Assembly (NCBI GenBank): GCA_046594005.1
Contig: JBKJQM010000293.1
Span: 1-32,945 of the forward strand
DNA: 32,945 nt
Origin: Mycobacteriales bacterium
Lineage (GTDB): Bacteria > Actinomycetota > Actinomycetes > Mycobacteriales > SCTD01
Reading direction: 5' to 3'
In this document: positions 3,163 through 32,945 of the stretch, one piece after another
How the letters are laid out: every line of letters starts with the position of its first letter
Numbering within the stretch: position 1 is the first letter of the stretch
Translations under genes and position numbers: made by a program
Notes under the pieces: model-generated
Database searches by the model: none
What the model was told of the DNA's origin: nothing
What the model saw: only the letters and a program-made list of their open reading frames with translations

Positions 3163-3182
3163 GCGCCGTCGTGCGCCGCTCG

Positions 3183-4028: not shown

Positions 4029-4031
4029 TGC

Positions 4032-10167: not shown

Positions 10168-10253
10168 GTCAGAGCCTCCCTGTGCGGGCCTGCACCAGCC
10201 GCGTCCCCGCGGCACGAGGCTACCGGGAAGCGGCGCATCTCGGACGTCGACGC

Positions 10254-16100: not shown

Positions 16101-16427
16101 CTAGCGCTCCGGCGGCGGCGGTGGCAGACCCACGACGACCAGGCCCCGTACGTGCAGGTCCACGTAGAGGTCCAGGGCGAGTGCCGCGGGGGGGACGGCC
16201 CCGGTGAGGACGACCATCCCCAGGTCTTCGACGCGTTCCAGGGCGGCCGTCACAGCGGCCGTGCCGCTGCTGGCGACCACGACCGCGACCGGCCGTACCA
16301 CCGCGTCGGGCACCTGCAGCCGCGCGCCGAGCAGCCGACGCACCTCGTCGGCCAGCAGGCCGGTCCCTGCGACCTCCACCCGGTCCGCGCCCGGGGGGAG
16401 CGCGGCGAGGACGTCCTGGGCGCTCAC
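16101..16427 (-). CDS. Small protein resembling the C-terminal half of an MDR (zinc-ADH-like) nucleotide-binding domain
   Basis: The GTG at 16427 overlaps the upstream TGA (GTGA, 16424-16427). GC3 is near 100 percent. VAVVVASSGTAAVTAALERVEDLGMVVLTGAV...LHVRGLVVVG parallels AVVIEATGDPAAVGGAVAAARDGGTVVLLGSS...RRVRLVGAHV in the neighbouring gene. Confidence 0.55.
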   Translation of the reverse strand: MSAQDVLAALPPGADRVEVAGTGLLADEVRRLLGARLQVPDAVVRPVAVVVASSGTAAVTAALERVEDLGMVVLTGAVPPAALALDLYVDLHVRGLVVVGLPPPPPER

Positions 16428-18676: not shown

Positions 18677-18699
18677 GCGGTGAGGATGGCACCTGCCGC

Positions 18700-19464
18700 T
18701 CAGCGCCGAAGCAGGCCGGTCGGGAGAGCGGTCGCCGCGCGGACGGCCAGGGACGGCCGCTGCCGCAGCCGCAGCCGCACGGGACGACCGTCCACCAGGA
18801 CCTCGCGCAGACCGGGGCCGACCTCACGGCCGCCAGCGATGTGCTCGGCCCACCACACGTTGGAGGACACGAACTCCAGCGGCTCGACCAGGCGCTGCTC
18901 ACGCAGGGGCTGCGTGCCGTAGGCGGCCAGGGCGCGCTGCAGCTGCGCCTGCGACGACCAGCCCTCGGTGCCCTCGGGGTCCCCGACGTGCTCGCGCGGT
19001 GCACGGGCCGGCGAGTGAGCTGCCTCGAAGTCGTAGGCGCCACGCCCGAAGATGAGCACCAGGTTCCGCTCCGTCTCCAGCATCGAGTCGCTCGCGTGCA
19101 CGCGGTAGCCACCGCCGGTCCAGCGCCGGTACCGCAGGCGCGCGTCGTAGACGTTGGTGTTCAGCACCCGCCGGCCCCGGCCCGTGCGCCGCAGGCCGAA
19201 CCGCGGCCTGGTGTCCTCGACGACCACCGCGAGGAACGGCCCGGTCCCGCAGTGCAGCTCCTTGTCCGACCCCGGTGGAAGCGCGTCGCCGTACATCCTG
19301 GTCAGGCTCCGCGCGAAGCGCTCGTCGGGCGTCCAGGTCACCTCGACGACGTCGAGGACGCGGAAGCGCGTCGCCAGGTCCTCGAGGATCCTGCGCTCCT
19401 GTGCCCGGGCTTCGGACCACACGACGAAGACGTAGCGCGGCCGACGCGCGGCCGTCGTCAGCAT
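18700..19464 (-). CDS. Hypothetical protein; the N-terminal roughly 140 aa show nucleoside-diphosphate-kinase-like motifs and the C-terminal roughly 110 aa are of unknown function
   Basis: ATG at 19464, 4 nt after the upstream stop. The frame is clean and GC3 is high. TGPFLAVVVED and YRVHASDSMLETERNLVLIF resemble the NDK motifs SGPVVAMVWEG and N.IHGSDS.ESA.REI.LWF. This is a by-eye similarity only. Confidence 0.7.
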   Translation of the reverse strand: MLTTAARRPRYVFVVWSEARAQERRILEDLATRFRVLDVVEVTWTPDERFARSLTRMYGDALPPGSDKELHCGTGPFLAVVVEDTRPRFGLRRTGRGRRVLNTNVYDARLRYRRWTGGGYRVHASDSMLETERNLVLIFGRGAYDFEAAHSPARAPREHVGDPEGTEGWSSQAQLQRALAAYGTQPLREQRLVEPLEFVSSNVWWAEHIAGGREVGPGLREVLVDGRPVRLRLRQRPSLAVRAATALPTGLLRR

Positions 19465-19468
19465 CGGG

Positions 19469-20152
19469 TCATCCCGGTCGCCGTACGCACGCGCCGACGA
19501 CGAGGGGCCGTTCGTCGTCCTGCTGGGCGAGCGTGCCGTCCCGCAGGTCCTCGGCCGCGAGCCCGAACAGGAAGGCCCGGCCGGCCAGCCCGTTCCCCAG
19601 TCCGCTGACCTCCGTCACCGACCCCTCCGGGACGACCGTCGAGAGCAGCTGCCGCATGCCGGCCGGCGTCCACCTCCAGAGGTCGTGCGTGCCGTCCACC
19701 CGGCTCAAGCAGGGGACCGTCAGCAGGAGCGCGCCACCCGGGCGCAGGCCGCGCACGAGGTTCGCTACGGCGGTAGCCGGGTCCGAGAGGAACTGCAGGG
19801 TCTGGGTGACCACGGCGGCGTCGTACGACATGGGCGGCAGCGTGAGGGGGTTGCAGAGGTCCCCGACGATGGTCGCTCTCGCGTTCGAGGGGTCGTTGTC
19901 GACGATCTCGACCGCGTCCGCGCCCAGCCGCGAGGCGTAGCGGTCGTCCTTCACCTCGAGCACTCGGCCGCGCACGCAGGACCGGTGGGCCTGCAGGTAG
20001 CGCTCGATGTACCACCGGTCGACAGGGGTCCCGCGTTGGGAACCCCACCGCGTGAGCGCGCGCACGCGACCGAGGGACCCGAAGCGGCCCATGAGCACGA
20101 GCCGCTCGGCGCCGGCCACGTGCTGCACCGCCCTGCGTGCGAGGGTCCTCAC
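19469..20152 (-). CDS. Class I SAM-dependent methyltransferase
   Basis: The GTG at 20152 overlaps the upstream TGA (GTGA). Supporting motifs are GTPVDRWYIERYL, RVLEVKDDRY, DAAVVTQTLQFLSDP and LRPGGALLLTVP. Confidence 0.8.
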   Translation of the reverse strand: MRTLARRAVQHVAGAERLVLMGRFGSLGRVRALTRWGSQRGTPVDRWYIERYLQAHRSCVRGRVLEVKDDRYASRLGADAVEIVDNDPSNARATIVGDLCNPLTLPPMSYDAAVVTQTLQFLSDPATAVANLVRGLRPGGALLLTVPCLSRVDGTHDLWRWTPAGMRQLLSTVVPEGSVTEVSGLGNGLAGRAFLFGLAAEDLRDGTLAQQDDERPLVVGACVRRPG

Positions 20153-21093
20153 GCGTCCGCCCCGCGCCGGCTCCGGAGCCTCCACCGACCCCGAGAGGAG
20201 GCCGGCAGCAGCTCCGCGAGCCGGGCCGCGAGCTCGGCGCCCGACCAGTCCCTCACGTTGAGCCGCGGCAACCGGTGCGCGTCGACGCGGCCGCTCACGG
20301 CGCGCCGCTCGGTGGTGCAGGCCACCGCGCACCCCGCCTCCTGCGACAGACGAGGAGCCAGGTCGCCGACCGCGCGAGCGGTCCCGAAGGGGTAGGCGAA
20401 GGTGGTGACGGGCCGGCCGAGGAGCTGCGAGAGGTCCTGCACCGAGCCGAGGATCTCGGACCGCTGCAGCGCCTCGGACTGGCCGGCCAGCTGGAGGTGG
20501 GTGCGGGTGTGCGCGCCGATCTGCGCGTGCTGCAGGCGGGCGAGCCCGCTGACCTGCTCGTCCGTCATCGAGCGCTCGTCAACGGGCGGGGCGGGCGCGT
20601 CGAGCCGCTGCGCGACCTCCTCGACCACGGCTACCACCTCGTCCGGGGGCAGCGGTCGCAGACGCCGGTGCAGGAAGCGCAGCGAGGTCTCCCGGGCACG
20701 GCTGTCGTTCAGCGCCAGCCACAGGGGACGGCCGGCCACGCGGACGTCGATGCCCTCAGACATCGGCCGGTCCGCCAGGAGGGCAGTGGCCAGCTCGTCC
20801 CACCAGAACGCCCGGCCACCCAGCCGCCCCGTGGTGATGAAGTACGTCGCGGGCAGCCCGGCCTGCTCGAGCACCGGCGCTGCCGTCGTCGCGTTGTCCG
20901 CGTAGCCGTCGTCGAAGGTGATGGCGACCGTCGGGGTGCGACCCGTGCCCATCACCTCCTCCAGGGGCACGACGCAGCCGAGCCTGCCGAGGTGCTCGGC
21001 GTGCTCAGCGAAGCGCTCCGGGTGCACGGCCAGGCCGTAGGGGTCGTTCCGCACCGCTGCGATGCGGTGGTACATGAGGACGACCCCGCTCAC
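20149..21093 (-). CDS. Polysaccharide deacetylase, CE4 / NodB homology domain
   Basis: The GTG at 21093 overlaps the upstream TGA (GTGA). Supporting motifs are VVLMYHRI, AITFDDGYADN, GAHTRTH and FAYPFG. Confidence 0.85.
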   Translation of the reverse strand: MSGVVLMYHRIAAVRNDPYGLAVHPERFAEHAEHLGRLGCVVPLEEVMGTGRTPTVAITFDDGYADNATTAAPVLEQAGLPATYFITTGRLGGRAFWWDELATALLADRPMSEGIDVRVAGRPLWLALNDSRARETSLRFLHRRLRPLPPDEVVAVVEEVAQRLDAPAPPVDERSMTDEQVSGLARLQHAQIGAHTRTHLQLAGQSEALQRSEILGSVQDLSQLLGRPVTTFAYPFGTARAVGDLAPRLSQEAGCAVACTTERRAVSGRVDAHRLPRLNVRDWSGAELAARLAELLPASSRGRWRLRSRRGADA

Positions 21094-21584
21094 CCCGGCA
21101 CCTCGGCGATCCACAACCGGCGGCGACCCCCACCGTGCACGGCGACGACGCGGGTCTGCTCCCGGAGCGCCCGGAGCTCCGGGCCGTCCTCGGACCATGC
21201 GGCCCGGTCCAGCAGCACCAGGAGGCCCGCCGCCCGGCTCGCCGGCAGCACCGCGCGCAGCCTGCCCCGGAGGTCGGCTCCCGGATCGAGCACGACCACC
21301 GTGTCCCACCGTGCAGCCGGCAGCGATGCGCTGCCATCGACCCTCGAGCAGACGGTCACCTCGTGCATGTGCGGGCTCGTCCCGGCGACGTCGACCTCCA
21401 CCGACGGGAGCGCCTGCCGGGCGGCGAGCCCGGCACCCACCACCAGGACGCTCCCCAGGTCGAGGGTGGACAGGGCGCGCCGCAGCAGGCGGCGGTTGGC
21501 CGCCACGTCCCCCACCGGCACGGCGCGCTCTCCCAGCCAGCTGCCGGCGAGCTCGCGCACGAGCGCCCTCGCGCGGAAGGTCAC
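21090..21584 (-). CDS. Small Rossmann/methyltransferase-like protein (164 aa), function unknown
   Basis: The GTG at 21584 overlaps the upstream TGA (GTGA). GC3 is very high. Supporting motifs are SVLVVGAGLAARQ, WDTVVVLDPGADL and LRAVLPASRAAGLLVLLD. Confidence 0.55.
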   Translation of the reverse strand: MTFRARALVRELAGSWLGERAVPVGDVAANRRLLRRALSTLDLGSVLVVGAGLAARQALPSVEVDVAGTSPHMHEVTVCSRVDGSASLPAARWDTVVVLDPGADLRGRLRAVLPASRAAGLLVLLDRAAWSEDGPELRALREQTRVVAVHGGGRRRLWIAEVPG

Positions 21585-22543
21585 CGTGTGCCGTCCCGGA
21601 GCGCGCGGCGCGGGACGGCAGCCAGGAAGAGGGTCGCACGGGCCCTGGTCGAGGCGCGCCGCCCGCTCGCGGCCCGCAGCGCGAGACGGGTGGCACGAGG
21701 ATCCTGCGCGCTCCGGGCCGCGCGCGCGAGGCGCTCGCGCCACTCCTGCTCGGTGCGCTGGAGCTGCCGACGCTGGCGCCTGTCCCGCGCGAGCGGTCGG
21801 CTGTGCTGCAGCACCGCGAGCACGCCCAGGGAGAGCGCCAGCTTGTCGCCCGTCAGGCTCCGCGTGCGGCGGCGGTACTCGTACAGGGGCTCACGGACGA
21901 GCCCTGCGCGGTGTCCGGACAGCAGGAGGCGGAGCCACAGGTCCCAGTCCTCCGCGGACCGAGCACCGTCGCGGTAGCCGCCGGCACGGCGGAAGGCGTC
22001 GGCCCTGACGGCCCCTGCTCCGAGGATGAAGTTGCTCCGCAGGATGCCCAGCTCCTGGTCCTGCGTGCAGAACTCGCGGACGTCGTAGTAGGTCCGCTCG
22101 TCGGGGCGACCGTCGCGGACCACGACGGCGTCCGTCGTGAGCACGGCGAGGTCCGGTCGTGCGGCGGCCGCGGCCGTCAGCGCCGCCGCGCGGCCGGGGA
22201 GCCACACGTCGTCGGCGTCCAGGAGCGCGAGCAGGTCCCCCTGCGCCGCGGCGGCGGCCCGGTTGCGCGCCGTTGCCAGCCCGGCGTTCGGTCCTCGGAC
22301 CAGGCGGATGTGGCGTGCGAAGGGTGCGAGTGCACGGTCGATGTTGTCCGTGGAGCCGTCGTCGCTGACGACGACCTCGTCAGGAGGCGGCGACTGAGTG
22401 AGAAGCGACTCCAGCGCCTCACCGACCGTGTGGGCGCCCTCGTACACCGGCACCAGGACCGACAGCCTGGGTAGCGGGCCGGGCCTGGTGCCGGGCGGCG
22501 GTGCCGGCGCCGAGAGCAGCAGCGGGTCGCGCATCACGGCCAT
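21581..22543 (-). CDS. Glycosyltransferase family 2 (GT-A)
   Basis: ATG at 22543. Supporting motifs are LSVLVPVYEG, VVVSDDGSTD, ATARNRA, LLDADDVW and SAEDWDLWLRL. Confidence 0.85.
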   Translation of the reverse strand: MAVMRDPLLLSAPAPPPGTRPGPLPRLSVLVPVYEGAHTVGEALESLLTQSPPPDEVVVSDDGSTDNIDRALAPFARHIRLVRGPNAGLATARNRAAAAAQGDLLALLDADDVWLPGRAAALTAAAAARPDLAVLTTDAVVVRDGRPDERTYYDVREFCTQDQELGILRSNFILGAGAVRADAFRRAGGYRDGARSAEDWDLWLRLLLSGHRAGLVREPLYEYRRRTRSLTGDKLALSLGVLAVLQHSRPLARDRRQRRQLQRTEQEWRERLARAARSAQDPRATRLALRAASGRRASTRARATLFLAAVPRRALRDGTR

Positions 22544-22653
22544 CCCGCGCCCCGCCTGCGGTCCACGCGCCCATGCTACGAGCGGCCGGCAGCCCGTGGT
22601 GGAATGCGGCGCATGCTCGTCTCCCGCGCCGGCAGCGACGGGGGCCGGCTGCC
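22544..22653. promoter_or_regulatory. Divergent intergenic region (presumed bidirectional promoter)
   Basis: Positional only: a 110-nt gap between back-to-back GT2 genes. It contains two similar words, catgctacgag and catgctcgtc. Confidence 0.3.
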
Positions 22654-24105
22654 GTGACCGCTGCTGACGGCGTGCCGCTGGTGTCGGTCGTCATGCCGTT
22701 CAAGGACACGGCCGAGTTCCTCGAGGAAGCCGCTCAGAGCGCGCTCGACCAGACCTGGGCGTCGACCGAACTCGTCCTCGTCGACGACGGCGGGACCGAC
22801 GGCAGCGACGCAGTGGCCGAGGCCGTACGCGCACGCCACCCCGACCGGGTCCGGGTGGTGTCGCACCCGGGCCGCGCCAACCGCGGGATCGGGGCCAGCC
22901 GCCGGATCGGGTTCGCCGCGGCGCGCGGCGAGCTGCTCGCCAACCTCGATGCCGACGACGTCTGGGAGGTGTGCCACCTGGAGGACCAGGTACGGCTCCT
23001 GCTTCGTTCGCCAGGAGCCGGCGTGGTCCAGGGCCGCGCCTGGCACTGGTGGAGCTGGGCCGACCCGGATCGGCGGGACCTGCTGTTCCCGCCTGCCTTC
23101 GCGCCCGGCGTCGTCGTGCCGGGTGAGCGGGTGGTCGGCGCCGTCCTGCGCAACGGCGGCTACGCCGCCCCGCCGTGCAGCGTGCTGTTCCGGGCCTCGC
23201 TCCTCGGGGACTGGGCAGCGGTCATCGACGACTTCCCGGGGATGTACGAGGACCAGGTGCTGCACTCCGGCCTGCAGCTACGGGCCGGCGTCGTGATCAG
23301 CGGTGCCACCACGGCGTGGTACCGGCAGCACAGCCGGTCGATCAGCGCGCAGCAGCTGCTCCCCGATCCCGCGACCCGCTTCGACCGGGGGCGGCAGGCC
23401 TTCCTCGACTGGCTGGCCCGGCAGCCGCAGCTCGTCAACCCGGACGTGCGCGGGCAGCTGGCGCGCAACCGGCAGGAGCTCCGCGAGCGCTCGCAGCCGC
23501 CGGCGGCGGGACTCGTTCCGCCCCAGCCGGCCGCCCGGCCGGCTCGGCTGGCGCGGCGACTCGGCCGTGGGGCGCGTGCGGCTGCGGCTCGCGGCCGGAC
23601 CGCCGTGAGGACAGCGGACGCGCTCCGCCACGGCGGCTTGCAGCGGCTCGACCGACCCGCCCGCCGGGCCCGGCAGGAACGGCTGAGACTGGTCTTCCAG
23701 CGGCACGGCGCCGACCTGCGCGGTCGGGTCCTGCTGCTGGGTGCACTGGAGGACGTGCCCGTCGAGGTCCGGGCGGCCGCCGGCGAGCACCGTCGTGTCC
23801 CACCGGGGCCAGGCCGGCCTGGCCCGCACCACCCGCTGGCGTCGCTCCGCACCGGCGCCTACGACTGCGTCGTGCTCGTGGCCGACGTGGGAGGCGGCAA
23901 CTGCGGGCCCCACGACCTGCGCCACCTGCGCCGCGTGCTCGCCCCCGGCGGAGTCCTGCTGCTCGTCGCGTCCCCTCCCTACGACGACGTCGAGCGGACG
24001 GCCCGCGAGGTGTTCGACACCGACTGCCTGCACCTGTACTGGCAGGTCTCTCCCGGCCCGCCGGGACGACCGCTGCTCGCGCTTCGAGCTGCTGTTCCGG
24101 GCTGA
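22654..24105 (+). CDS. Glycosyltransferase family 2 fused through an Arg/Ala-rich linker to a C-terminal methyltransferase-like module
   Basis: GTG at 22654 within track ORF 22501..24105. An ATG at 22573 is an alternative start. GT2 motifs are VSVVMPFKD, LVLVDDGGTDGS and NLDADDVW. The tail has RVLLLGALED, YDCVVLVADV and LRRVLAPGGVLLLV. GC3 is lower in the last third, so the frame there is less certain. Confidence 0.75.
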   Translation: MTAADGVPLVSVVMPFKDTAEFLEEAAQSALDQTWASTELVLVDDGGTDGSDAVAEAVRARHPDRVRVVSHPGRANRGIGASRRIGFAAARGELLANLDADDVWEVCHLEDQVRLLLRSPGAGVVQGRAWHWWSWADPDRRDLLFPPAFAPGVVVPGERVVGAVLRNGGYAAPPCSVLFRASLLGDWAAVIDDFPGMYEDQVLHSGLQLRAGVVISGATTAWYRQHSRSISAQQLLPDPATRFDRGRQAFLDWLARQPQLVNPDVRGQLARNRQELRERSQPPAAGLVPPQPAARPARLARRLGRGARAAAARGRTAVRTADALRHGGLQRLDRPARRARQERLRLVFQRHGADLRGRVLLLGALEDVPVEVRAAAGEHRRVPPGPGRPGPHHPLASLRTGAYDCVVLVADVGGGNCGPHDLRHLRRVLAPGGVLLLVASPPYDDVERTAREVFDTDCLHLYWQVSPGPPGRPLLALRAAVPG

Positions 24106-24114
24106 TCGGCCCGC

Positions 24115-25293
24115 TCAGCCGAGCTGCGTGACCCGGAAGGGCACGTCGAGGACGACGGTCCGGTCGCGGACTCGTGCGGGGTCGCCGTGCAGGGTGAAGC
24201 TGGCGGCGGTCTCCTCGTAGTGCACGTTGTCCTCCTTGTCCCCGAGCCAGACACCGAGGGTGTACTCGCCGTGCGCGAGCACCGGCGGCAGGGAGATCTC
24301 GGCGCGGTACCGCCCGACCCCGAAGGCCGCCTCGTGGTTGTGGCTCATGGTCTCGTCCACGACGCGCACGCCGTGGTCGTTCGTGATGAAGATGGAGAGG
24401 TCCAGGCCTACGCGCGGCTCGAGCATCTCGAACTCCACGACCACCGTCAGTGGGTCCTCCCGGAGCAGCGGCCCGTCCCCGCCCTTCGTGGCCCGCACGT
24501 TCACAGCGGTCAGGCGGCCGGCCTCGGAGCCGCCCATGAAGGAGGTCCCGCCGCCGATGAGCTCGTAGCCCGACGTCAGGTAGTCGCGGACGACCTGGTG
24601 GGTCGGGCCGTCGTCGACGACCTGCCCGCGCTCGAGCCAGACGGTGCGCGCGCAGAGCTTGCTGAGGCTGCTCAGGTCGTGGCTGACGAAGACCACCGTG
24701 CGCCCCTCGGCCTCGGCCAGCGACATCCGGCCCAGGCACTTGCGCTGGAACTCGGCGTCGCCGACCGCGAGCACCTCGTCGACGATGAGGATGTCGGGGT
24801 CGAGGTGCGCCGCCACCGCGAAGGCGAGGCGCAGGTACATCCCGCTCGAGAAGCGCTTCACGGGCGTGTCGAGGAAGCGCTCGGTGCCGGCGAAGTCGAC
24901 GATCTCGTCGAAACGGGCGGCCGTCTCCCGCCGGGTCATCCCGAGGATCGCCGCGTTCAGGAAGACGTTCTCCCGGCCGGTGAGCTCGGGGTGGAAGCCG
25001 GTGCCGACCTCGAGCAGAGCCGCGACCCGGCCGCGGGTCCGGCTCACGCCCTCGGTCGGCGTGGTGATGCGCATCAGCACCTTGAGGATGGTGCTCTTGC
25101 CCGCGCCGTTGCGACCGATGAGGCCCAGGGCCTGGCCGTCCGCGACCGCGAAGCTCACGTCCCGCAGCGACCAGAGGTCCCGGTCCTGCGGGCGGTGCCG
25201 CCGGCCGAGCTGGAGCACGGTCTCCCGCAGGTTGCCGCGCTCGCCGAGCCGGTAGCGCTTGCTCAGGTGCTCGACCTGGATGCGGTCGCTCAC
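24115..25293 (-). CDS. wzt: ABC transporter ATP-binding protein for glycan export (Wzt/TagH type) with a C-terminal extension of about 150 aa
   Basis: Walker A GRNGAGKST, signature FSSGMYLRL, Walker B ILIVDE and H-loop FVSHD. The C-terminal domain is beta-rich (VVEFEMLEPRVGLDLSIFITNDHGVRVVDE...YTLGVWLGD). The GTG start directly abuts the wzm stop. Confidence 0.9.
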   Translation of the reverse strand: MSDRIQVEHLSKRYRLGERGNLRETVLQLGRRHRPQDRDLWSLRDVSFAVADGQALGLIGRNGAGKSTILKVLMRITTPTEGVSRTRGRVAALLEVGTGFHPELTGRENVFLNAAILGMTRRETAARFDEIVDFAGTERFLDTPVKRFSSGMYLRLAFAVAAHLDPDILIVDEVLAVGDAEFQRKCLGRMSLAEAEGRTVVFVSHDLSSLSKLCARTVWLERGQVVDDGPTHQVVRDYLTSGYELIGGGTSFMGGSEAGRLTAVNVRATKGGDGPLLREDPLTVVVEFEMLEPRVGLDLSIFITNDHGVRVVDETMSHNHEAAFGVGRYRAEISLPPVLAHGEYTLGVWLGDKEDNVHYEETAASFTLHGDPARVRDRTVVLDVPFRVTQLG

Positions 25294-26118
25294 TCAGATC
25301 ACGTCGGCGAAGGACCGGGAAGCCCGCAGGAAGTACACGACTCCCGCCACGGCGAGCACTACGGCCATGGCCGTGGACACGGCCAGCGTGGCGTCCGGTG
25401 CCGGGCCGGAGACCAGGACGAACCTCCCTAGCTCCAGGACGCCCACCGCCGGGTTGAGCGCGTAGAGGTAGCGGGACGCGCCGTCGAGCGACTGCGCGGA
25501 GTAGGCCACCGGGCTCAGGAACAGGAAAGCCTGCAGGACCGGTGAGACGAGGTGGCGCACGTCCCGGAACCGCACGTTGAGCGCCGCGAGCGCGCAGGTC
25601 ACGCCTAGTGCAGTGAGGGCGAGCAGGGCGAGCCACACGGGCAGCAGCAGGAGGGCCGCTGACGGGGCCACGCCGTACAAGAGGCAGAGCAGCAGCAGCA
25701 GCAGCAGGCCGACGCCGAGGTCGATCATGGGCGGCAGCAGCGAGGCCAGCGGCGCGATGAGGCGCGGGAAGTAGACCTTGGTGATCAGGGAGCTGTTGCC
25801 GACCAGCACCTCGCTGCCCTTGCCGATGCACTGCGACAGGTAGTTCCAGCCGAGCAGACCGGCCAGCGCGAAGACGGGATAGGGCGTTCCACCGGTGTCG
25901 ATGTCCGCCAGCCGGTCGAAGACCAGGGTGAACGCGAGCACCGTGATGACCGGCTGCGCCACCACCCACAGCACGCCGAGCACGGCCTGCTTGTAGCGCA
26001 CCCGCAGGTCGCGGGAGGCGAAGAACAGCACCAGCTCACGGCCTGCCCACAGCTCCGGCAACGACGCCCGAACGCTGGTGCGGGGGCCGTTCTCGAGCCA
26101 CGGCCCCGTCGTCGCCAT
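25294..26118 (-). CDS. wzm: ABC-2 type transporter permease for glycan export (Wzm/TagG type)
   Basis: 274 aa. RDLRVRYKQAVLGVLWVVAQP is the hallmark ABC-2 N-terminal motif. There are 6 hydrophobic segments. Confidence 0.9.
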   Translation of the reverse strand: MATTGPWLENGPRTSVRASLPELWAGRELVLFFASRDLRVRYKQAVLGVLWVVAQPVITVLAFTLVFDRLADIDTGGTPYPVFALAGLLGWNYLSQCIGKGSEVLVGNSSLITKVYFPRLIAPLASLLPPMIDLGVGLLLLLLLCLLYGVAPSAALLLLPVWLALLALTALGVTCALAALNVRFRDVRHLVSPVLQAFLFLSPVAYSAQSLDGASRYLYALNPAVGVLELGRFVLVSGPAPDATLAVSTAMAVVLAVAGVVYFLRASRSFADVI

Positions 26119-26219
26119 TGCCGGAGACTAGCCGCGGCAGCGGAGCGCCGCAGGAGCGGTCGACGGCCGCCGCGACCTCCGTCGTCGTCGGTCTGCGGTC
26201 ACCCGTGTGACGGTCCCGC
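26119..26219. promoter_or_regulatory. Divergent intergenic region upstream of wzm
   Basis: Positional only: a 101-nt gap between the wzm start and the + strand GTG at 26220. Confidence 0.25.
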
Positions 26220-26411
26220 GTGACCGAGATCCCCCTGGTCGTCCTGGCCCACCGCGTGCCCCGGCACGTCGCACGCCTGGTCCAGGCGCTGGCGTCAGAC
26301 GTCAGCCGCTGCTACGTGCACGTCGACGAGGGGTCCCCGGCAGCGGTGCACCGCGAGGTGCGGGAGCTCATCGGCCGCCGGCCGGACGTCCGCCTCCTGC
26401 CGTCCCGCCGG
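26220..26411 (+). pseudogene. Remnant of the 5' end of a GT14-like (core-2/I-branching type) glycosyltransferase gene
   Basis: The GTG at 26220 starts about 64 codons with high GC3: TEIPLVVLAHRVPRHVARLVQALASDVSRCYVHVDEGSPAAVHREVRELIGRRPDVRLLPSRR. This matches the N-terminal pattern of bacterial GT14 proteins (I.YLILAH..P.Q..RL...L......F.HVD..S). After about 26410 GC3 drops and the expected V.WGG.S block is missing. The rest of track ORF 26220..26927 is a shadow of the next gene. Confidence 0.45.
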
Positions 26412-26458
26412 CCACGCGATGACGTGGACGCGCCTGCTGCTCGGCGCCATGATGCCGC

Positions 26459-28162
26459 GTGCCCGCCGCCGCGTTGTCCCGACGCGACGTGCTGCTCGCC
26501 GCCGCCGGGGGCCTGGTCCTTCCCCCCTTGCTGTTCTGGCCCTTGCTGCGCGAGCTCGGGTCCGCGGTACCGAAGGACGTCGGCGACCCGCTGCCCCAGG
26601 CGTGGCAGCTGGCCTGGGGGGGCCATGCACTGCGGTCGCAGCCGCTCGACCTGTTCCAGTCGAACCAGTTCTTCCCCGGCCGCAACACACTGGCGTACTC
26701 GGACTCGCTGCTCGGCTACGCCCCGGCGGGACTGCTGGGCAGCGGCCCCGGCGATGCGGTGCTGCGCTACGACGTGCTCTTCCTCCTCGCCCCTGCGCTG
26801 GCGTTCGCCGCCACGTTCCTGCTGGCACGGCAGCTCGGGCTGGGCCGGAGTGGTGCCGCGGTGGCCGGCGTCGCCTTCGGGTTCTCGCCGTACCGGCTGG
26901 AGCAGTTCAACCACCTGCACGTCCTGAGCAGCGGCGGCATCCCGCTGGCGCTGCTGCTGCTCCTGCGCGGGCACGGTCGCGGTGACCCGCGGACGGTCTT
27001 CGCCGGCTGGGCTGTCACCGCCTGGCAGCTGACGCTCGGCTTCTCCCTCGGCCTGCTGCTCGTCTACCTCATCGGCGGCATCTGGCTGTGGCTGCTTGTC
27101 GAGTGGCTGCGTGACGGACGTCCGGCGCTGACCCGGAGCACTCTCACGGGCCATGTCGCCGGCCTCTCGCTCCTCGCGGGGACGGCGTTCCTGGTCGCCC
27201 AGCCGTACTTAGCAGTCGTCGAGGAGTTTCCCGAGGCGCGACGCACACTCGCGGACACAGCACGCTTCTCCGGGCCGTTGGTGTGGTCCTACCTGTCGGC
27301 GGCGGAGGAGTCGACGCTCTGGGGGCCGCTGACCTCAGGGGCACGACAGCACCTCACCTTCGCGTCCGAGCAGACGCTGTTCCCTGGGCTGACGGTCGTG
27401 CTACTCGGACTGTCTGGCCTGCTGTGGCGCAGAGCGCCGCTCGATCGTCGCCTCCGAGTGTTCCTCGCTGTCGCAGTGACAGCGTGCGCCGCCTTCGCCC
27501 TGGGAACCGCGGCTGAGGGTGCGCGCAGCTTCAGCCCCTACCGGCTGCTGTACGAACTGGCGCCAGGGTTCCAGGCGGTGCGGGTGCCTGGTCGCATCAC
27601 GACGCTGACGACGCTGGGACTGTCGGTGCTGGCCGGCTGCGGTGCCCAGCGGTGGGCCGGTGCCGTCGCCGCACGTTGGCCCCGCCTCGCTCCCTGGGCT
27701 GCCGCCGGCCTGGTCGGGCTCGTGCTGTTCGAGGGCTCTTCACTGCGGACGCAGGACGAGGACCCCGGTTCTTTCCGCACCCCGATCGTGGAGGCCCCTC
27801 CTGTGAGCTTTGCGGACGTCAAGGGGCCGGCGCTGCACCTGCCGGCCGAGCCGGAGGACAACCGTCGCTACCTGCTGTGGTCCACGGACGGTTTCGAGGA
27901 CATGGCGAACGGGCGGTCCAGCCTGGTGCCTCAGCGGTTCCTGGACCTGGTGGAGGGCGCAGCGACCTTCCCGGACCGCGAGTCGGTCGCGCGAGTGCGC
28001 GCCTTCGGACTGTGCACGGTGGCCCTCCATCGTGCGCACCTGGCAGGCACGCCCTGGCAGGCGTGGCAGGACCGCTCCATCCAGGGGCTCGGCATCCGTC
28101 GCACCGTCTGGGAAGACCTGGTCGTCTACGACCTCAATACGCCAGGGGGCGCCTGCCGCTGA
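26459..28162 (+). CDS. Polytopic membrane protein, possible GT-C-like glycosyltransferase with a C-terminal soluble domain
   Basis: GTG at 26459; 567 aa. The first loop reads VPKDVGDPLPQAWQLAWGGHAL, and there are about 10 hydrophobic helices. The last roughly 150 aa are soluble (YLLWSTDGFEDMANGRSS). Confidence 0.7.
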   Translation: MPAAALSRRDVLLAAAGGLVLPPLLFWPLLRELGSAVPKDVGDPLPQAWQLAWGGHALRSQPLDLFQSNQFFPGRNTLAYSDSLLGYAPAGLLGSGPGDAVLRYDVLFLLAPALAFAATFLLARQLGLGRSGAAVAGVAFGFSPYRLEQFNHLHVLSSGGIPLALLLLLRGHGRGDPRTVFAGWAVTAWQLTLGFSLGLLLVYLIGGIWLWLLVEWLRDGRPALTRSTLTGHVAGLSLLAGTAFLVAQPYLAVVEEFPEARRTLADTARFSGPLVWSYLSAAEESTLWGPLTSGARQHLTFASEQTLFPGLTVVLLGLSGLLWRRAPLDRRLRVFLAVAVTACAAFALGTAAEGARSFSPYRLLYELAPGFQAVRVPGRITTLTTLGLSVLAGCGAQRWAGAVAARWPRLAPWAAAGLVGLVLFEGSSLRTQDEDPGSFRTPIVEAPPVSFADVKGPALHLPAEPEDNRRYLLWSTDGFEDMANGRSSLVPQRFLDLVEGAATFPDRESVARVRAFGLCTVALHRAHLAGTPWQAWQDRSIQGLGIRRTVWEDLVVYDLNTPGGACR

Positions 28163-28165
28163 CCA

Positions 28166-28475
28166 CTACCGGGCCGCGAAGTAATTGGCCTCGGGGTGAT
28201 GGGCAACGATCGCCGACGTCGGCTGCTCGGGAGTCAGCTGGAAGCCCTCCCTCACCTCGACGCCGATCCCCTCGCACTCCAGCACGGCCGCGACCTTGGT
28301 CGGGTCCTCGACGTCCGGGCAGGCCGGTGGCCCCACACGTAGCGGGCGCCGCGGTGCTCGAACGTCGAGATCCCCGAGAGGTCGCGCTTCCTCGTCGGCG
28401 CAGCCGAGCTCGGCGCGCACCCGGGCATGCCAGAACTCCGCCAGCGGCACCGGCAGGTCTTGCAACTCGCGGTAC
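28166..28475 (-). pseudogene. Decayed copy of the 3' end (last roughly 100 codons) of metH
   Basis: Track ORF 28166..28465 translates to ...LAEFWHARVRAELG...PACPDVEDPTKVA...GFQLTPEQPTSAIVAHHPEANYFAAR. This parallels the intact metH end: LAEFWHARVRAELG...YPACPDVEDQTKVA...EFQLTPEQSTSAIIAHHPEAKYFAAR. My hand alignment with 31638 onward gives about 20 mismatches in the first 160 nt, then a 1-nt deletion near 28329 and a 2-nt deletion near 28387. The codons between the two deletions are frameshifted. Confidence 0.9.
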
Positions 28476-28479
28476 GCGC

Positions 28480-28692
28480 GTGCCTGTGCTGAGCCTGCTC
28501 GCGTCGCGCCTTCTGCAGTGGTCCGGCCTGGTCTCCTACGCGGTGTTCCTGTGGCACGAGCCGCTGATCTGGTCCCGGCGGCGGCACGGCTGGACCTCCG
28601 CCGGTCGGCTGGGGTTCGGACTGGCGCTGCTCCTGACGGCGTGCACGGTCGTTCCCATCGCGCTCTTCAGCTGGCGACTGGTCGAGAGGCCG
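28480..28692 (+). pseudogene. C-terminal remnant (about 70 codons) of an acyltransferase family 3 (OafA/YrhL-type) gene
   Basis: LSLLASRLLQWSGLVSYAVFLWHEPLIW...LLLTACTVVPIALFSWRLVERP matches the conserved AT3 C-terminus (G.iSY.iYLwH.P ... s.rlvE.P). No upstream AT3 body exists; the frame abuts the metH remnant at about 28476-28480. Confidence 0.6.
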
Positions 28693-28699
28693 GCGGGTG

Positions 28700-29065
28700 A
28701 CGGGCAGGAACGAGACACCGGGGACCCTCGGCGCAGCCACCCGTGCGCAGCCGGCGACTTCAGCGGACGCGACGCCCGACGGCGGGTCCGCCATCACGCT
28801 GGACCCGGACGGGTCGACGCCGAGCCGGCCCGCGACGGTCGAGTAGGGCGGTCGGGCTTGCCGATCAGCACGTCGTCGCCGGCCAGCGTCAGCGCGAACG
28901 GCCCGACCCCTGGGCGCGGCCCGCGTCGACCAGCACGCGTAAGACGACCCACACCAGCGCCACCGGCAGCCCCTCGGGATCGTGTGCTCAGAGGAGCTCA
29001 CCAGCGGCCGGCATCCGCGACGACAGGTGCCATACCAGGGCGAGTCAGGAGCATCCGTCCCAGGG
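28700..29065 (-). pseudogene. Decayed copy of the 3' half of the HAD hydrolase gene found intact at 30896..31561
   Basis: The - strand reads PPYSTVAGRLGVDPSGSSVMADPPSGVASAEVAGCARVAAP, against the intact PEPYLTAAARLGVVPSRCVVLEDSPSGVASGEAAGCAVVAVP. Further upstream it reads MPAAGELL*AHDPEGLPVALVWVVLRVLVDA, against MPGVADLLSELDGQGVPMALVSSSYRVLVDA. There is an in-frame TGA at 28988-28990 and a 1-nt deletion near 28915. The boundaries are approximate. Confidence 0.8.
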
Positions 29066-29095
29066 GTCACAGTTCTGTGGCCCACGTGGCCTGTC

Positions 29096-30784
29096 ATGAA
29101 TGGGCAACAGAGCGTAACGTCTGCATTTGCCCGGCTTGTGAGCCCTGGGGGGGACGTGTTCGGATCGGGGCGGTTGCGCGTCGCCGGCGACGGCGCTGAC
29201 GTCGGCGGCTGGCTCAGTGCGACCTCGGCTGCCACCGAGGCCGAACCCGGGCAGCGCGCCGGGGGCCCCGCGCGCCACCGGGTGCTCGACCTCGACCGTG
29301 GGTTGGACCTTGACTGCCTGCGTCCGGCGAGCAACTCGAACAGGCCCGTCGCGCCGTCCTCCGCAAGCCCGGAGTCGCCGGTCCTCGATGTCGACACGGA
29401 CGTCGTCACCGAGCGAGCTGACCGAGCACCTTGGTTCGCGAGGTTCGGCTCCGGCCTGGTGCTCGCAGGGCTGGACATCTCCACGGCCACCACCGTGGGG
29501 ACGATGGTCGTCGTCGGGACCGGTCAGCCGCTCCGCGTCGTCGCGATGTCCCTGGGACTCGTGCTCAGCTTCCGCGCGACGGGGCTGTACCGGCGCCGGC
29601 TGTCCTTCTCCGCCCTCGACGATGCGCCGTTCCTCGTCGGGGGTGCGCTGCTCGCCACTGCTGGGGTGCTTGCCGTAGCGCTGATGCAGGGGCAGGCCAT
29701 CACGCCGCAGGGAGCAAGGGACGCCGGCTTCCTCGTCACGGTCCTGGTCAGCGCCTTGCTGCTGGAGCGCACGATGACGTACTGGGGGCTGCGTCGCTGC
29801 CGTCGCGCCGGGCTGTTCTGCGAGCGCGCTCTCGTCATCGGTGCCGGCCACGTCGGCCAGCGGCTCGTGCGGAACCTGCAGGAGCACCTCGAGTACGGCC
29901 TGGTCCCGATCGGTTTCCTCGACTCACACCCCCGCGTGGGCACCGCAGACGAGCTCCCCGCCCCGGTGCTGGGCGGCTACTCGAAGCTGGCGGACGTCAT
30001 CCGCGAGTACCGCATCACGAGGGTCATCGTCGCGTTCAGCGCCGTCCGCGAGGCGGGGCTGGTCGACGTGCTGCGCACGTGCGACCGGCTCGACTGCGAG
30101 CTCTCCTTCGTACCGCGGCTCTTCGAGCTCCACCGCCGGACCCGGTCCATGGACGAGGTCTGGGGCCTCCCGCTCATGCACATGCGCCGCGCCCCCTTCC
30201 GCTCCTTCTCCTGGCGGCTGAAGCGCGTCTTCGACATCGTCATGGCTGCGACGGGCCTGCTGCTGCTCGCGCCGGTGCTCGCTGCGTGCGCCCTGCTGGT
30301 CCGTCTCGAGAGCGGGCCGGGCGTGCTGTTCCGTCAGGAGCGGGTCGGGTTGGACGAGCGACCGTTCCAGATCCTCAAGTTCCGCACCCTGCGTCCCCTG
30401 GACGACGATGAGGCCGCGGTGCGCTGGACCGTGTCCGGCGATCCACGCATCGGGCCGGTCGGGCGCCTCATGCGCACGACCTCGCTCGACGAGCTGCCCC
30501 AGCTCTGGAACATCCTGACGGGCCGCATGAGCGTGGTGGGGCCGCGTCCTGAGCGGCGCCACTTCGTCAGCCAGTTCTCCAGCCACGTCCCGCGCTACAC
30601 CGCCCGGCACCGCGTTCCAGCGGGCCTGACGGGCTGGGCCCAGGTCCACGGCTTGCGCGGCAACACCTCCATCGAGGAGCGCGCGGTCTTCGACAACGCC
30701 TACGTGGAGAACTGGTCTCTCTGGGGCGACGTCAAGATCGTGCTGCGGACAGCCGGATCGGTGCTGCGCCGCACGGGCGGCTGA
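29096..30784 (+). CDS. Polyprenyl-phosphate sugar phosphotransferase (large WbaP/CpsE-type priming glycosyltransferase)
   Basis: Four N-terminal TM segments, a Rossmann-like middle domain (ALVIGAGHVGQRL) and a catalytic domain with KRVFDIVMA, FRQERVG, KFRTL, DELPQLWNIL and SVVGPRPE. The start is uncertain. The ATG at 29096 is followed by about 14 low-GC3 codons, so the GTG at 29138 or at 29156 is also plausible. Confidence 0.9.
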   Translation: MNGQQSVTSAFARLVSPGGDVFGSGRLRVAGDGADVGGWLSATSAATEAEPGQRAGGPARHRVLDLDRGLDLDCLRPASNSNRPVAPSSASPESPVLDVDTDVVTERADRAPWFARFGSGLVLAGLDISTATTVGTMVVVGTGQPLRVVAMSLGLVLSFRATGLYRRRLSFSALDDAPFLVGGALLATAGVLAVALMQGQAITPQGARDAGFLVTVLVSALLLERTMTYWGLRRCRRAGLFCERALVIGAGHVGQRLVRNLQEHLEYGLVPIGFLDSHPRVGTADELPAPVLGGYSKLADVIREYRITRVIVAFSAVREAGLVDVLRTCDRLDCELSFVPRLFELHRRTRSMDEVWGLPLMHMRRAPFRSFSWRLKRVFDIVMAATGLLLLAPVLAACALLVRLESGPGVLFRQERVGLDERPFQILKFRTLRPLDDDEAAVRWTVSGDPRIGPVGRLMRTTSLDELPQLWNILTGRMSVVGPRPERRHFVSQFSSHVPRYTARHRVPAGLTGWAQVHGLRGNTSIEERAVFDNAYVENWSLWGDVKIVLRTAGSVLRRTGG

Positions 30785-30800
30785 CGTCCTGCCGACGCGG

Positions 30801-30874
30801 CGGCAGCCTCGTCCCTGCCAGGGCTTTCCGGGGCCGCGCCGGCACACGGACGAGGTCGGCGGAGGCGGCTGCCG
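30801..30874. terminator. Imperfect long hairpin between convergent genes (possible bidirectional terminator)
   Basis: cggcagcctcgtcc (30801-30814) pairs with ggacgagg (30848-30855) and ggctgccg (30867-30874). There is an internal bulge and no U-tract. Confidence 0.25.
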
Positions 30875-30895
30875 GGCGTGGACACCGGCTGATGG

Positions 30896-31561
30896 TCAGG
30901 GGCATGACGGCTGCACCAGTGCCCGCAGCGAATCGACGTCCAGCCCCACGAGGGACCCGACCACCACCCGGCGTGGACGCGGCTCGAGCACCACGCCAGC
31001 AATGCTCGGGACCGCGACGACCGCGCAGCCGGCCGCCTCGCCACTTGCGACGCCGGACGGGGAGTCCTCCAGCACCACGCACCGGGAGGGGACCACGCCG
31101 AGCCGGGCTGCCGCCGTGAGGTAGGGCTCGGGGTCCGGCTTGCCGCGGGTCACCTCGTCACCGGCGAGCGTGAACGCGAACGGACCGATCCCGTGGGCCA
31201 GCACCGCGTCGACGAGCACGCGGTACGACGAGGACACCAGCGCCATCGGCACCCCCTGGCCGTCCAGCTCCGACAGCAGGTCCGCGACGCCCGGCATCAA
31301 CGGCAGGTCGCCGGCGAACAGCTCGCGCATCCGGAGCAGCAGCCAGGCCGACGTCTCGGCAACGCGCGCCGCGGTGGCCTCGACCCCGAAGTACGTCAGG
31401 ATCCCGGGCACGGCGACGTCGAGCCGGGTCCCGACGACGCGCGCCTTGACCTCGTCGTCCCACTCGCCGCCGAGCGAGCGCGCGAGCTCGACCTCGGCCA
31501 CGGTCCACAGCGGCTCGCTGTCCACCAGCAGGCCGTCCATGTCCCACAGGACCGCGTCCAC
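30896..31561 (-). CDS. HAD-superfamily hydrolase (beta-phosphoglucomutase/phosphatase-like subfamily IA)
   Basis: Motif I is LWDMDGLLVDSE, motif II is LVSSS, motif III is RGKPDPEPY and motif IV is VLEDSPSGV. Start chosen at the GTG at 31561. The track start at 31582 adds 7 codons with poorer GC3. Confidence 0.85.
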   Translation of the reverse strand: MDAVLWDMDGLLVDSEPLWTVAEVELARSLGGEWDDEVKARVVGTRLDVAVPGILTYFGVEATAARVAETSAWLLLRMRELFAGDLPLMPGVADLLSELDGQGVPMALVSSSYRVLVDAVLAHGIGPFAFTLAGDEVTRGKPDPEPYLTAAARLGVVPSRCVVLEDSPSGVASGEAAGCAVVAVPSIAGVVLEPRPRRVVVGSLVGLDVDSLRALVQPSCP

Positions 31562-31638
31562 TAGCGGCGCACCGCGGTGCACAGGGCGCCGAGGAGCAGC
31601 AGGCCGAGCAGGGTGCGGGGGTCGGTGGTCGTCCCCAC
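31561..31638 (-). CDS. Candidate 25-codon micro-ORF encoding a hydrophobic peptide that bridges metH and the HAD gene
   Basis: GTG at 31638..31636 and TAG at 31563..31561. The peptide is VGTTTDPRTLLGLLLLGALCTAVRR. All 25 sense codons end in G or C. The start overlaps the metH TAG by 1 nt and the stop overlaps the HAD GTG by 1 nt (TAGTG at both ends). Confidence 0.4.
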   Translation of the reverse strand: MGTTTDPRTLLGLLLLGALCTAVRR

Positions 31639-32945
31639 TACCGGGCCGCGAAGTACTTGGCCTCGGGGTGATGGGCGATGATCGCCGACGTCGACTGCTC
31701 GGGCGTGAGCTGGAACTCCTCGCTCAGCTCGACGCCGATCCGGTCCCACTCCAGCAGCTCGGCGACCTTGGTCTGGTCCTCGACGTCGGGGCAGGCGGGG
31801 TAGCCCCAGGCGTAACGGGCGCCGCGGTGCTCCAGCTTGAGGATCCCGGACAGGTCGCGCGCGTCCTCGTCGCCGAAGCCCAGCTCGGCCCGCACCCGCG
31901 CGTGCCAGAACTCCGCCAGCGCCTCGGTCAGCTGCACGGACAGGCCGTGCAGCTCGAGGTACTCGCGGTAGGAGTCCTTGGCGAACAGGTCGCCGGCGAC
32001 CTCGCTCACCCGGCGGCCCATGGTCACGACCTGGAAGGCGACGACGTCGACCTCGCCGGACTCCTGCGGCCGCCAGAAGTCGGCCAGGCACAGCCGCCGG
32101 TCGCGGCGCTGGCGCGGGAAGGTGAAGCGTGCCCGCTCGTCGCCGGTGGAGGAGTCCAGCACGATCAGGTCGTCGCCCTTGGAGACCGCCGGGAAGTACC
32201 CGTGCACGACGGCGGCCTGCATGATGCCCTCGGTCTGCACCTGCGACAGCAGGGCGCGCAGCCGCGGCCGGCCCTCGGTCTCGACGAGCTCCTCGTAGGA
32301 GGGGCCGGCGCCGGCGCGCGAGCCGCGAAGCCCCCACTGGCCGAGGAACAGCGCCCGCTCGTCGATCCACGAGGCGTAGTCGGCCAGCGCGATGCCCTTG
32401 GTGATCCGCGAGCCCCAGAAGGGCGGTTCGGGGATGCGGTTGTCGGTCGCCACGTCCGAACGGCCGGCCGGCTCGTCGGAGGCCTCGTCGGCCTCCCGGG
32501 CCGCGCGCGACTCCGCGATCGCCCGGGAGCGCGCATGACGCGCCTTGCGCTCGTCGTCCTTGGCCTGCTGCTCCGCCGAGGCCTCGGGGGTCACGAGGCC
32601 GCGCTTCTCGCCCATCAGCTGGTCCATCAGGCGCAGGCCCTCGAAGGCGTCGCGCGCGTAGGTCACCCGTCCGTCGAACACCTCGTCGAGGTCCTGCTCG
32701 ACGTACGCCCTGGTGAGCGCCGCCCCGCCCAGGATGACCGGGTAGTTCGACGCCATCCCGCGGGAGTTCATCTCCAGCAGGTTCTCCTTCATGATCACCG
32801 TCGACTTGACGAGCAGCCCGGACATGCCGATGACGTCGGCGCCGTGCTCCTCGGCCGCCTCCAGGATGGCGTTGACCGGCTGCTTGATGCCGAGGTTGAC
32901 CACGGTGTAGCCGTTGTTGGACAGGATGATGTCGACGAGGTTCTT
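31638..32945 (-). CDS. metH: Cobalamin-dependent methionine synthase, 3' part (end of the B12-binding domain plus the AdoMet activation domain); 5' end outside the window
   Basis: The frame is open to the right edge (KNLVDIILSNNGYTVVNLGIKQ...). Supporting motifs are GADVIGMSGLLVKST and, in the activation domain, FWGSRI, RFTFPRQ, RGARYAWGYPACPD and IIAHHPEAKYF. Confidence 0.95.
   Translation of the reverse strand, partial: KNLVDIILSNNGYTVVNLGIKQPVNAILEAAEEHGADVIGMSGLLVKSTVIMKENLLEMNSRGMASNYPVILGGAALTRAYVEQDLDEVFDGRVTYARDAFEGLRLMDQLMGEKRGLVTPEASAEQQAKDDERKARHARSRAIAESRAAREADEASDEPAGRSDVATDNRIPEPPFWGSRITKGIALADYASWIDERALFLGQWGLRGSRAGAGPSYEELVETEGRPRLRALLSQVQTEGIMQAAVVHGYFPAVSKGDDLIVLDSSTGDERARFTFPRQRRDRRLCLADFWRPQESGEVDVVAFQVVTMGRRVSEVAGDLFAKDSYREYLELHGLSVQLTEALAEFWHARVRAELGFGDEDARDLSGILKLEHRGARYAWGYPACPDVEDQTKVAELLEWDRIGVELSEEFQLTPEQSTSAIIAHHPEAKYFAAR

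Follow-up and report, generated by a model that had tools for sequence, protein, structure and literature searches.

Three nested gene relics at the metH-proximal edge of an envelope-glycan locus in a Mycobacteriales bacterium: a probable record of repeated imprecise recombination

We analysed a 32,945-bp contig of a Mycobacteriales bacterium (JBKJQM010000293.1, GC ~74%); the whole contig is referred to below as the window. Our subject is a 0.9-kb zone (28163-29065) that carries fragments of three genes, namely metH, a HAD-IA phosphatase gene (HAD) and an acyltransferase-3 gene (AT3). The fragments, denoted metH', HAD' and AT3', are all pseudogenes. They are probably the residue of imprecise recombination that recurred where a hypervariable envelope-glycan locus borders metH.

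Gene order was read along the minus strand, with genes on the opposite strand given as plus. In this direction the order is metH, a 25-codon micro-open reading frame (micro-ORF), HAD, an oppositely oriented gene for a priming polyprenyl-phosphate glycosyl-phosphotransferase (PGT), HAD', AT3' (opposite), metH', a gene for a 567-amino acid (aa) protein (opposite), Wzm/Wzt and the remaining glycan locus.

31638-32945, minus strand: intact metH up to the contig end, beyond which the gene continues; the 421 C-terminal codons plus stop that are present encode the B12-binding and activation domains.
31561-31638, minus strand: micro-ORF of 25 codons plus stop, compared by sequence and translation with three relatives (L083, L174 and L175).
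30896-31582, minus strand: HAD-IA phosphatase gene, intact to the C-terminus; 228 aa as annotated, probably 221 aa from the GTG at 31561.
29096-30784, plus strand: PGT gene, convergent with HAD; the start is at 29096 (ATG) or 29156.
28690-29065, minus strand: HAD' relic, a pseudogene covering residues ~78/96-205 with two frameshifts and one stop.
28480-28700, plus strand: AT3' relic, residues ~320-388 of an acyltransferase-3 whose gene is convergent with HAD in relatives.
28163-28480, minus strand: metH' relic, a pseudogene that retains the final ~110 codons with the stop and a further 3 nt.
26135-28162, plus strand: gene for an uncharacterised 567-aa multi-pass membrane protein (26459-28162) with its 324-nt upstream region.
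24115-26118, minus strand: the ABC transporter genes Wzm (25294-26118) and Wzt (24115-25293), with Pfam matches to ABC2_membrane, ABC_tran and Wzt_C.

Nested direct repeats and the three pseudogenes

An initial annotation made from the sequence alone had described this region as nested direct repeats (A-B-x-B'-y-A') in which the PGT gene lies between two copies of the HAD 3' half, and that unit between two copies of the metH 3' end. Both repeat pairs were recovered by blastn with the order and orientation described. metH' (28163-28480) aligned with metH (31635-31967) at 81.7% identity over 333 columns (E 1.6e-92), and HAD' (28745-28974) aligned with HAD (31023-31257) at 74.6% over 236 columns (E 1e-37). 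The pairs are direct and nested, both relics lack their 5' parts, and in each case the intact copy lies beside the conserved anchor. Comparison of the full 32.9-kb contig with itself revealed no further repeat of comparable strength. The refined breakpoints (28162/28163, ~28475-28480, ~28690-28700 and ~29031-29065, with the HAD stop at 30896) fall within a few tens of bases of those first noted.

Inspection of the relics revealed damage in each. metH' has lost 12 nt in frame and carries -2 and -1 frameshifts that compensate each other and leave a 99-codon frame open (28166-28465); only 3 nt separate its stop from that of the convergent 567-aa gene. The HAD homology of the second relic was clear (tblastn E 2e-22), although it is an internal-to-3' fragment rather than the 3' half that had been proposed. 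Residues ~96-205, probably from ~78, are spread over three frames with an internal stop, and the last ~20 codons are gone. In blastn alignments HAD' reached 72-74% identity with relatives and 74.6% with the intact HAD. A deletion of ~170 nt has joined the 3' end of HAD' to AT3'. The acyltransferase-3 remnant also proved real, as AT3' was 65% identical to residues 320-388 of the AT3 of L083, a soil-metagenome relative, over 69 aa (tblastn E 5e-21) and 52% identical to the L174 AT3 over 89 aa (tblastn E 2e-18). By blastn it was 72.6% identical to L083 10766-10961. The N-terminal ~320 and final ~40 residues of AT3 are missing, and the fragment itself had no Pfam match. A frame plot of third-position GC content (GC3) showed no coherent coding frame from 28201 to 28950, and the sign of the AT skew in the relics still tracks the former coding strands.

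Phylogenies of the repeat copies, which the initial annotation had suggested as a check, were informative for metH. metH' is 84.6% identical to the window metH, 83.3% to the L083 metH and ~70-72% to others. The three sequences formed a clade with 96% bootstrap support, within which metH' was sister to the window metH (78%). Where the window and L083 metH genes differ, metH' shares the window state at 15 sites and the L083 state at 11. The HAD tree did not resolve. Because HAD' is 54-61% identical at the amino acid level to all 120 homologues alike, its lineage is unidentifiable; identities for the matching live segment are 76-83%.

The 37 substitutions private to metH' are distributed 11/11/15 over the three codon positions, compared with 0/1/10 and 1/3/11 in live orthologues. 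Since these private changes are evenly spread, metH' has evolved mostly neutrally during its separate history. Sites that are invariant in all live orthologues were changed at 13.5% in metH' (28/207) and at 17.9% in HAD' (29/162); these values are indistinguishable as ages, and the events are not ordered by decay. The relics are old, with an age roughly comparable to the divergence of the window lineage from L083, and no donor is assignable. The earlier proposal of recombinational exchange of cassettes is borne out to the extent that scars lie at the metH-proximal edge of the glycan locus; these scars record ancient events, not ongoing swapping in this genome.

We considered whether the relics were kept for a function, either as a peptide from the 99-codon metH' frame or as a promoter and 5' leader for the PGT gene. 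The compensating frameshifts do hold this frame open. In addition, the relic zone makes up the entire 933-nt spacer between the co-oriented 567-aa and PGT genes, and, with 13-18% neutral decay, this zone has lasted rather longer than would be usual for junk DNA in bacteria. However, the codon-position counts for metH' do not indicate purifying selection, the frame plot gives no coding signal, and scans of the relic zone detected no Rfam element, sigma-70-like promoter or terminator. A retained function is thus quite unlikely, and the relic zone may now be only a spacer and the 5' region of the PGT gene.

The ancestral junction and exchange of the locus in relatives

The nearest sampled relatives are soil metagenome bins of the Frankiales and Mycobacteriales type, with amino acid identities of ~77% at most in metH and HAD. 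None was closer than ~77-82% among the matches listed; a genome scan with metH gave no match closer than 77%, and a metagenome scan with Wzt none closer than 62%, again among the matches listed. In the soil-metagenome relative represented by L083 and L084, the order is metH, a 95-aa small ORF, HAD, convergent AT3, Wzm, Wzt and then GT2 onward. The window aligned with L083 in the following segments (window coordinates, nucleotide identity).

32945-31590: metH, 86%
31574-30960: HAD, 78%
28972-28689: HAD', 72%
28691-28496: AT3', 73%
28480-28163: metH', 81%
26134-17521: Wzm onward, 73%

At the amino acid level, metH is 88.6% identical to its L083 counterpart, and Wzm and Wzt are 84% and 83% identical, respectively. 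Within the glycan locus, collinearity with L083, L084 and L174 starts at Wzm/Wzt, and synteny with L083 breaks at 26134/26135.

Because of this collinearity between the window and L083, HAD'-AT3' is the eroded ancestral junction between convergent HAD and AT3 genes, which is intact in both L083 and L174. The AT3' segment had initially been taken for an insertion, an interpretation that the ancestral junction overturns. Relative to L083, the window carries two changes. First, an intact HAD and the PGT gene were added in front of the old HAD. Second, metH' and the 567-aa gene with its 324-nt upstream region (26135-28495) replace the first ~320 AT3 codons and the AT3-Wzm spacer. The transferase module and the metH'-567 module are later additions, and PGT reached its present position secondarily.

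Exchange at these junctions was also evident between relatives. In L174, which comes from the same sample as L084, the order is the metH end, small ORF, Wzx, GT1, HAD, convergent AT3, epimerase, GFO oxidoreductase, Wzm and Wzt onward. Compared with L083, it has an extra Wzx-GT1 pair between the small ORF and HAD, and an epimerase and GFO oxidoreductase ahead of Wzm. We compared L174 1-320 and 3128-5069 with L083 9682-10001 and 9976-11892. The two contigs, which come from related soil samples, were 95.6% identical over 320 nt made up of the final 60 nt of metH and the small ORF, which is all of the anchor that L174 covers, and 73.6% identical from the HAD start onward; identity was 76.6% in Wzm/Wzt and ~70% beyond. 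This step in identity, together with the differing gene content, is a classic and direct sign that the locus was replaced, with metH and the small ORF anchoring its left side. Judged by these alignments, L174 and L083 represent a clean whole-locus replacement in a wild population. The proposal that metH and HAD both act as recombination anchors was consequently upheld for metH, together with the small ORF; identity drops at the HAD start, so HAD is mostly part of the exchanged region.

Adjacency of metH and HAD is old and widespread. Of the 80 fetched loci, most have HAD immediately after metH (73 HAD matches), including those of Streptomyces and Kitasatospora. In L175 and L081 the order is metH, small ORF, HAD, aldolase, PD-(D/E)XK, HgmA and FAA hydrolase, with no glycan locus at this position. 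In L001 (1613-2794), from a Frankiales bin, metH is directly convergent with a class II aldolase gene and neither the small ORF nor HAD is present; at least one loss of the metH-HAD adjacency has therefore occurred in this group. The closest nucleotide match to the window HAD (81.6%) was in L179, where a DUF2142/PMT-type glycosyltransferase gene lies immediately upstream of HAD; tblastx gave only noise outside the HAD match.

Two gene calls in the relatives deserve comment. The L083 AT3 call (10453-11928, minus strand, 491 aa) runs antisense through the HAD 3' end, and its last ~60 residues match the antisense of the window HAD. Over-extension of genes is typical of high-GC genomes, and the real L083 AT3 is probably ~430 aa, as in L174. 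In L081 8394-9694, metH DNA is present (83.5% identical to the window) and is split over several frames, with spurious antisense ORFs called across it. This broken metH probably reflects indel errors of long-read assembly, not a true pseudogene, and was left out of the evidence.

The micro-ORF of the window is an in-frame internal-deletion derivative of a conserved small hydrophobic membrane ORF of 93-105 aa. It occupies 31561-31638 (minus strand) and is ~210-234 nt shorter than the L083 (9714-10001), L175 (1911-2192) and L174 (3-320) versions. No Pfam family was found for the small ORF. At its start the micro-ORF shares bases with the metH stop (TAGTG), and at its end its stop codon overlaps the GTG from which HAD probably begins. 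Stop/start overlaps (TAGTG, TGATG) also flank the small ORF in relatives. Because these signals overlap, we suggest that metH, the small ORF and HAD are translationally coupled. HAD itself is annotated from a GTG at 31582 (228 aa). Its homologues begin M/V-D-A-V-L-W-D-M-D-G, which corresponds to the GTG at 31561; the annotation is thus probably seven codons too long.

Probable successive one-sided replacement and its alternatives

Successive replacements that combined one-sided homologous with illegitimate recombination provide the best reading of these data, and one that we consider likely. Starting from an ancestor arranged as in L083 (metH, small ORF, HAD, convergent AT3, Wzm, Wzt), new modules would have entered the window lineage from the metH side. 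A module would recombine by homology within metH, the small ORF or HAD, or upstream of them, and its far end would join illegitimately inside a resident gene. Each such event would supply an intact copy of the anchor and push the truncated resident copy downstream. If the illegitimate joint of a second event fell upstream of the first scar, the second layer would nest inside the first, and two layers would yield the order metH-HAD-PGT-HAD'-AT3'-metH'. In one event, HAD and the convergent PGT gene would have arrived and the resident HAD would have been cut at about residue 78-96. A separate event would have created the AT3'|metH' joint, with metH' and the 567-aa gene taking the place of the 5' two thirds of AT3. 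Later small deletions would have removed the HAD'/AT3' ends (~170 nt) and most of the small ORF (~210 nt).

Every scenario that we built required at least three rearrangements and two small deletions. The initial annotation had offered, as one reading, two events that each regenerated the 3' end of the target gene; this is one possible history among several that are equally parsimonious. The events may have involved left-anchored displacement into a genome in which metH was convergent with the 567-aa gene, right-anchored import of a metH'-567-Wzm segment into an L083-like genome, or a tandem duplication that made the AT3'|metH' joint, with replacement thereafter. Parsimony picks none of these because all need at least three events.

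Several observations weigh against successive one-sided replacement. No intact metH convergent with a 567-aa homologue was found in the four contexts checked; the homologues are at most 62% identical and lie in glycan contexts without metH adjacency. Similarly, no HAD convergent with a PGT gene was found among the five copies of the nearest PGT (60%). The surroundings of this PGT and of the nearest 567-aa homologues (62%) contained neither metH nor HAD. There is no clear microhomology at the joints, which could be placed within ~6-35 nt (28475-28480 and 29031-29065) and where decay obscures it. Sequential displacement also predicts that metH' is older than HAD', and the extent of decay (13.5% versus 17.9%) is indistinguishable or, if anything, reversed. 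Finally, the grouping of metH' with the window metH at 78% bootstrap fits intragenomic duplication as well as a closely related donor.

Intragenomic tandem duplication is one alternative. A tandem copy of a ~1.7-kb segment that began at metH codon -110, took in the small ORF and HAD and ended at AT3 residue ~320 would create the AT3'|metH' joint directly. The second copy of the small ORF, HAD and AT3 would later have been replaced by the 567-aa gene, and the PGT module would have been added upstream of the first HAD, truncating that HAD. The joint at ~28475-28480 has the end-to-start geometry of a tandem-duplication junction, metH' is sister to the window metH within the 96% clade that includes L083, and the even spread of its private changes over codon positions is what would be expected had it never been a functional gene elsewhere. 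Against this, the 15 versus 11 matches to the window and L083 approach a trichotomy and do not mark metH' as a clear post-split paralogue, no intermediate was observed, and two further events, including a third HAD copy, would still be needed, leaving the inner repeat unexplained. We regard the duplication as possible, although our confidence in it is tentative. Simple tandem duplication as the full account was rejected, as it gives A-B-A'-B' rather than A-B-x-B'-y-A' and would not supply a third HAD copy. The initial dismissal of tandem duplication therefore stands for the nested order as a whole; the AT3'|metH' joint may nonetheless stem from one.

The layout also invited comparison with site-specific integrative islands, which would have inserted at the metH and HAD 3' ends, regenerated them and since lost their integrase. 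Such islands, whose integrases target the 3' end of a tRNA or protein gene, rebuild that end on insertion. Direct repeats of a gene 3' end around extra DNA resemble such islands, and like them the window has a second, displaced target 3' end in direct orientation at the far side of the extra DNA. Unlike them, it has no recombinase, tRNA, short att core or compositional signature. Pfam scans of the substantial ORFs of the 32.9-kb contig revealed glycan-synthesis, transport, HAD and metH domains only, with no integrase, excisionase, transposase or recombinase domain, and a tRNA scan found no tRNA or tmRNA in the contig; the absence of integrase, transposase and tRNA had been noted initially. The contig was also free of Rfam elements. 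The repeats are long (236-333 nt, with the metH' repeat at ~320 nt), 75-82% identical and interrupted by indels, unlike att cores, which are short and identical. At their inner ends, the relics adjoin gene fragments (AT3' residue ~320 and HAD' residue ~78) rather than element termini. A search for composition breaks at the junctions had been suggested as a check; GC content was flat (0.67-0.76 over 27000-32000, 0.69-0.79 across the contig), and the cassette differences between relatives are clean, without att-like repeats. With recombinase, att core, tRNA target and compositional shift each tested and absent, the integrative-island class was rejected, and loss of a former integrase is highly unlikely to explain the region. 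Relatives carry different cassettes at exactly these junctions, and recombination-driven remodelling is therefore much more likely than a classical integrative element, in line with the initial annotation.

Another concern was that the contig is a chimera of co-occurring strains joined during metagenome assembly through the metH and HAD homologies. An origin from a metagenome or metagenome-assembled genome (MAG) is inferred because the nearest GTDB relatives are MAGs and most homologues lie on metagenome contigs, and L084 and L174 demonstrate that related strains with different cassettes co-occur in one sample. However, the copies are only 75-82% identical and contain indels, a divergence well beyond what an assembly graph would merge or span. 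Moreover, the relics are frameshifted, neutrally decayed and close to no sampled intact gene, and live strains would not yield them. A chimera is exceedingly improbable.

An extension of successive replacement is that the metH 3' end, with the coupled small ORF and HAD, serves as a preferred recombinase-independent docking point for glycan modules in this actinobacterial group. Modules would carry their own metH or HAD ends, the essential gene would be "healed" at each insertion and a metH terminus of ~330 nt would travel with the glycan locus. We consider this generalisation unlikely; one hint in its favour is the raised identity, over this same terminus, between the window and L083, which both carry the locus.

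A possible mosaic breakpoint within metH was examined. Over the last 333 nt of metH (31638-31970, equivalent to the metH' span), the window and L083 were 91% identical, compared with 86% upstream (31971-32945). Identity in the last 333 nt to genomes without the locus at this position was ~80-84%, and upstream all values were ~82-86%, with four relatives equidistant. The 91% effect disappeared at third codon positions (78% versus 78%) and was not counted as evidence.

Known systems and neighbouring genes

The arrangement resembles known cases of sequential displacement. In the effector-immunity arrays of the Vibrio cholerae type VI secretion system (T6SS), successive displacement by homology-facilitated illegitimate recombination, with orphans left downstream, has been proposed (Kirchberger et al. 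2017, PMC5361080), and the same model has been put forward for displacement of Rhs C-termini (as cited in PMC5361080). Shared features are a conserved upstream anchor, a new module beside the anchor, truncated older 3' pieces downstream in direct orientation, layering and the lack of an integrase. In contrast to the T6SS arrays, whose displaced pieces are toxin tips or immunity genes, the pieces displaced here are 3' parts of housekeeping-type genes (metH and HAD). They are dead and of no selective value, they make up only two layers, and no donors or intermediates were observed. The setting also differs, with glycan-synthesis genes as cargo in an uncultured high-GC actinobacterium.

O-antigen and capsule clusters are replaced via conserved flanking genes, and remnants record their history (Gal-initiated clusters of Salmonella, PMC3715488; reviewed for E. 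coli, PMC7685785). Like these loci, the window combines a hypervariable glycan locus at a fixed site and a sharp drop in flank identity with non-functional remnants that can be used to trace ancestry. The flank differs, consisting of metH, the small ORF and HAD rather than galF, gnd or his; the remnants are nested copies of flank genes, not wzy or insertion sequence (IS) remnants; and Wzm/Wzt is combined with Wzx-, Wzy- and Wzc-like genes and a PGT gene. The type of scar is thus already familiar, and the unusual detail is that 3' parts of the flank genes metH and HAD were themselves displaced.

The region changes no concept; its value lies in a well-documented example and in the corrected annotation, which now lists three pseudogenes, shows the small ORF as truncated and gives a probable start for HAD. 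It illustrates that envelope-glycan loci in a poorly sampled soil actinobacterial lineage diversify like O-antigen and capsule loci, by exchange at a fixed chromosomal address beside housekeeping genes without dedicated mobile-element machinery, and with some joins imprecise. For Frankiales- and Mycobacteriales-like metagenome bins, the metH-small ORF-HAD-AT3-Wzm interval offers a marker for typing and comparing glycan loci.

The genes around the relics were assigned as follows. metH matched Pfam Met_synt_B12 (4.7e-42) and B12-binding (7.6e-10). HAD, which was aligned with 23 homologues, matched Pfam Hydrolase (3.9e-27) and HAD_2 (1.9e-22), and NCBIfam TIGR01509 above its cutoff. The PGT matched Pfam Bac_transf (3e-63, 213 bits, cutoff 27) downstream of a CoA_binding_3-like domain, and scored 390 bits against NCBIfam TIGR03025 (EPS_sugtrans, cutoff 295.6), which places it in the PGT class. 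Its alternative start at 29156 yields the 542-aa database protein P0241. The nearest PGT homologue is just 60% identical and lies in an unrelated, transposase-flanked locus.

The 567-aa protein matched nothing in Pfam, NCBIfam or PDB. Its homologues number more than 1000, with ~50-62% identity among those listed, and lie mostly in glycan loci of soil Actinomycetota and Solirubrobacterales; a few of these match DUF6044 or DUF2079 weakly. We regard the protein as a candidate uncharacterised membrane enzyme of glycan processing.

Two weak repeats elsewhere in the contig (E ~1e-6) are unexplained. One is a 52-nt inverted repeat (22202-22253 and 22914-22965, 81%) at a boundary between divergent GT2 genes, and the other is a 41-nt direct repeat (8459-8499 and 8570-8610, 85%) within the Wzc-like ORF.

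The contig carries two export sets, at 473-10320 and 16424-26118. One comprises a Wzx-like gene (~5400-6950), a Wzy-like polymerase gene (6953-8326, weak match to TIGR04370) and a Wzc-like kinase gene (8263-10320, weak match), and the other is Wzm/Wzt. A PGT normally serves Wzx/Wzy genes, and the PGT gene of the window is located ~20 kb away from them.

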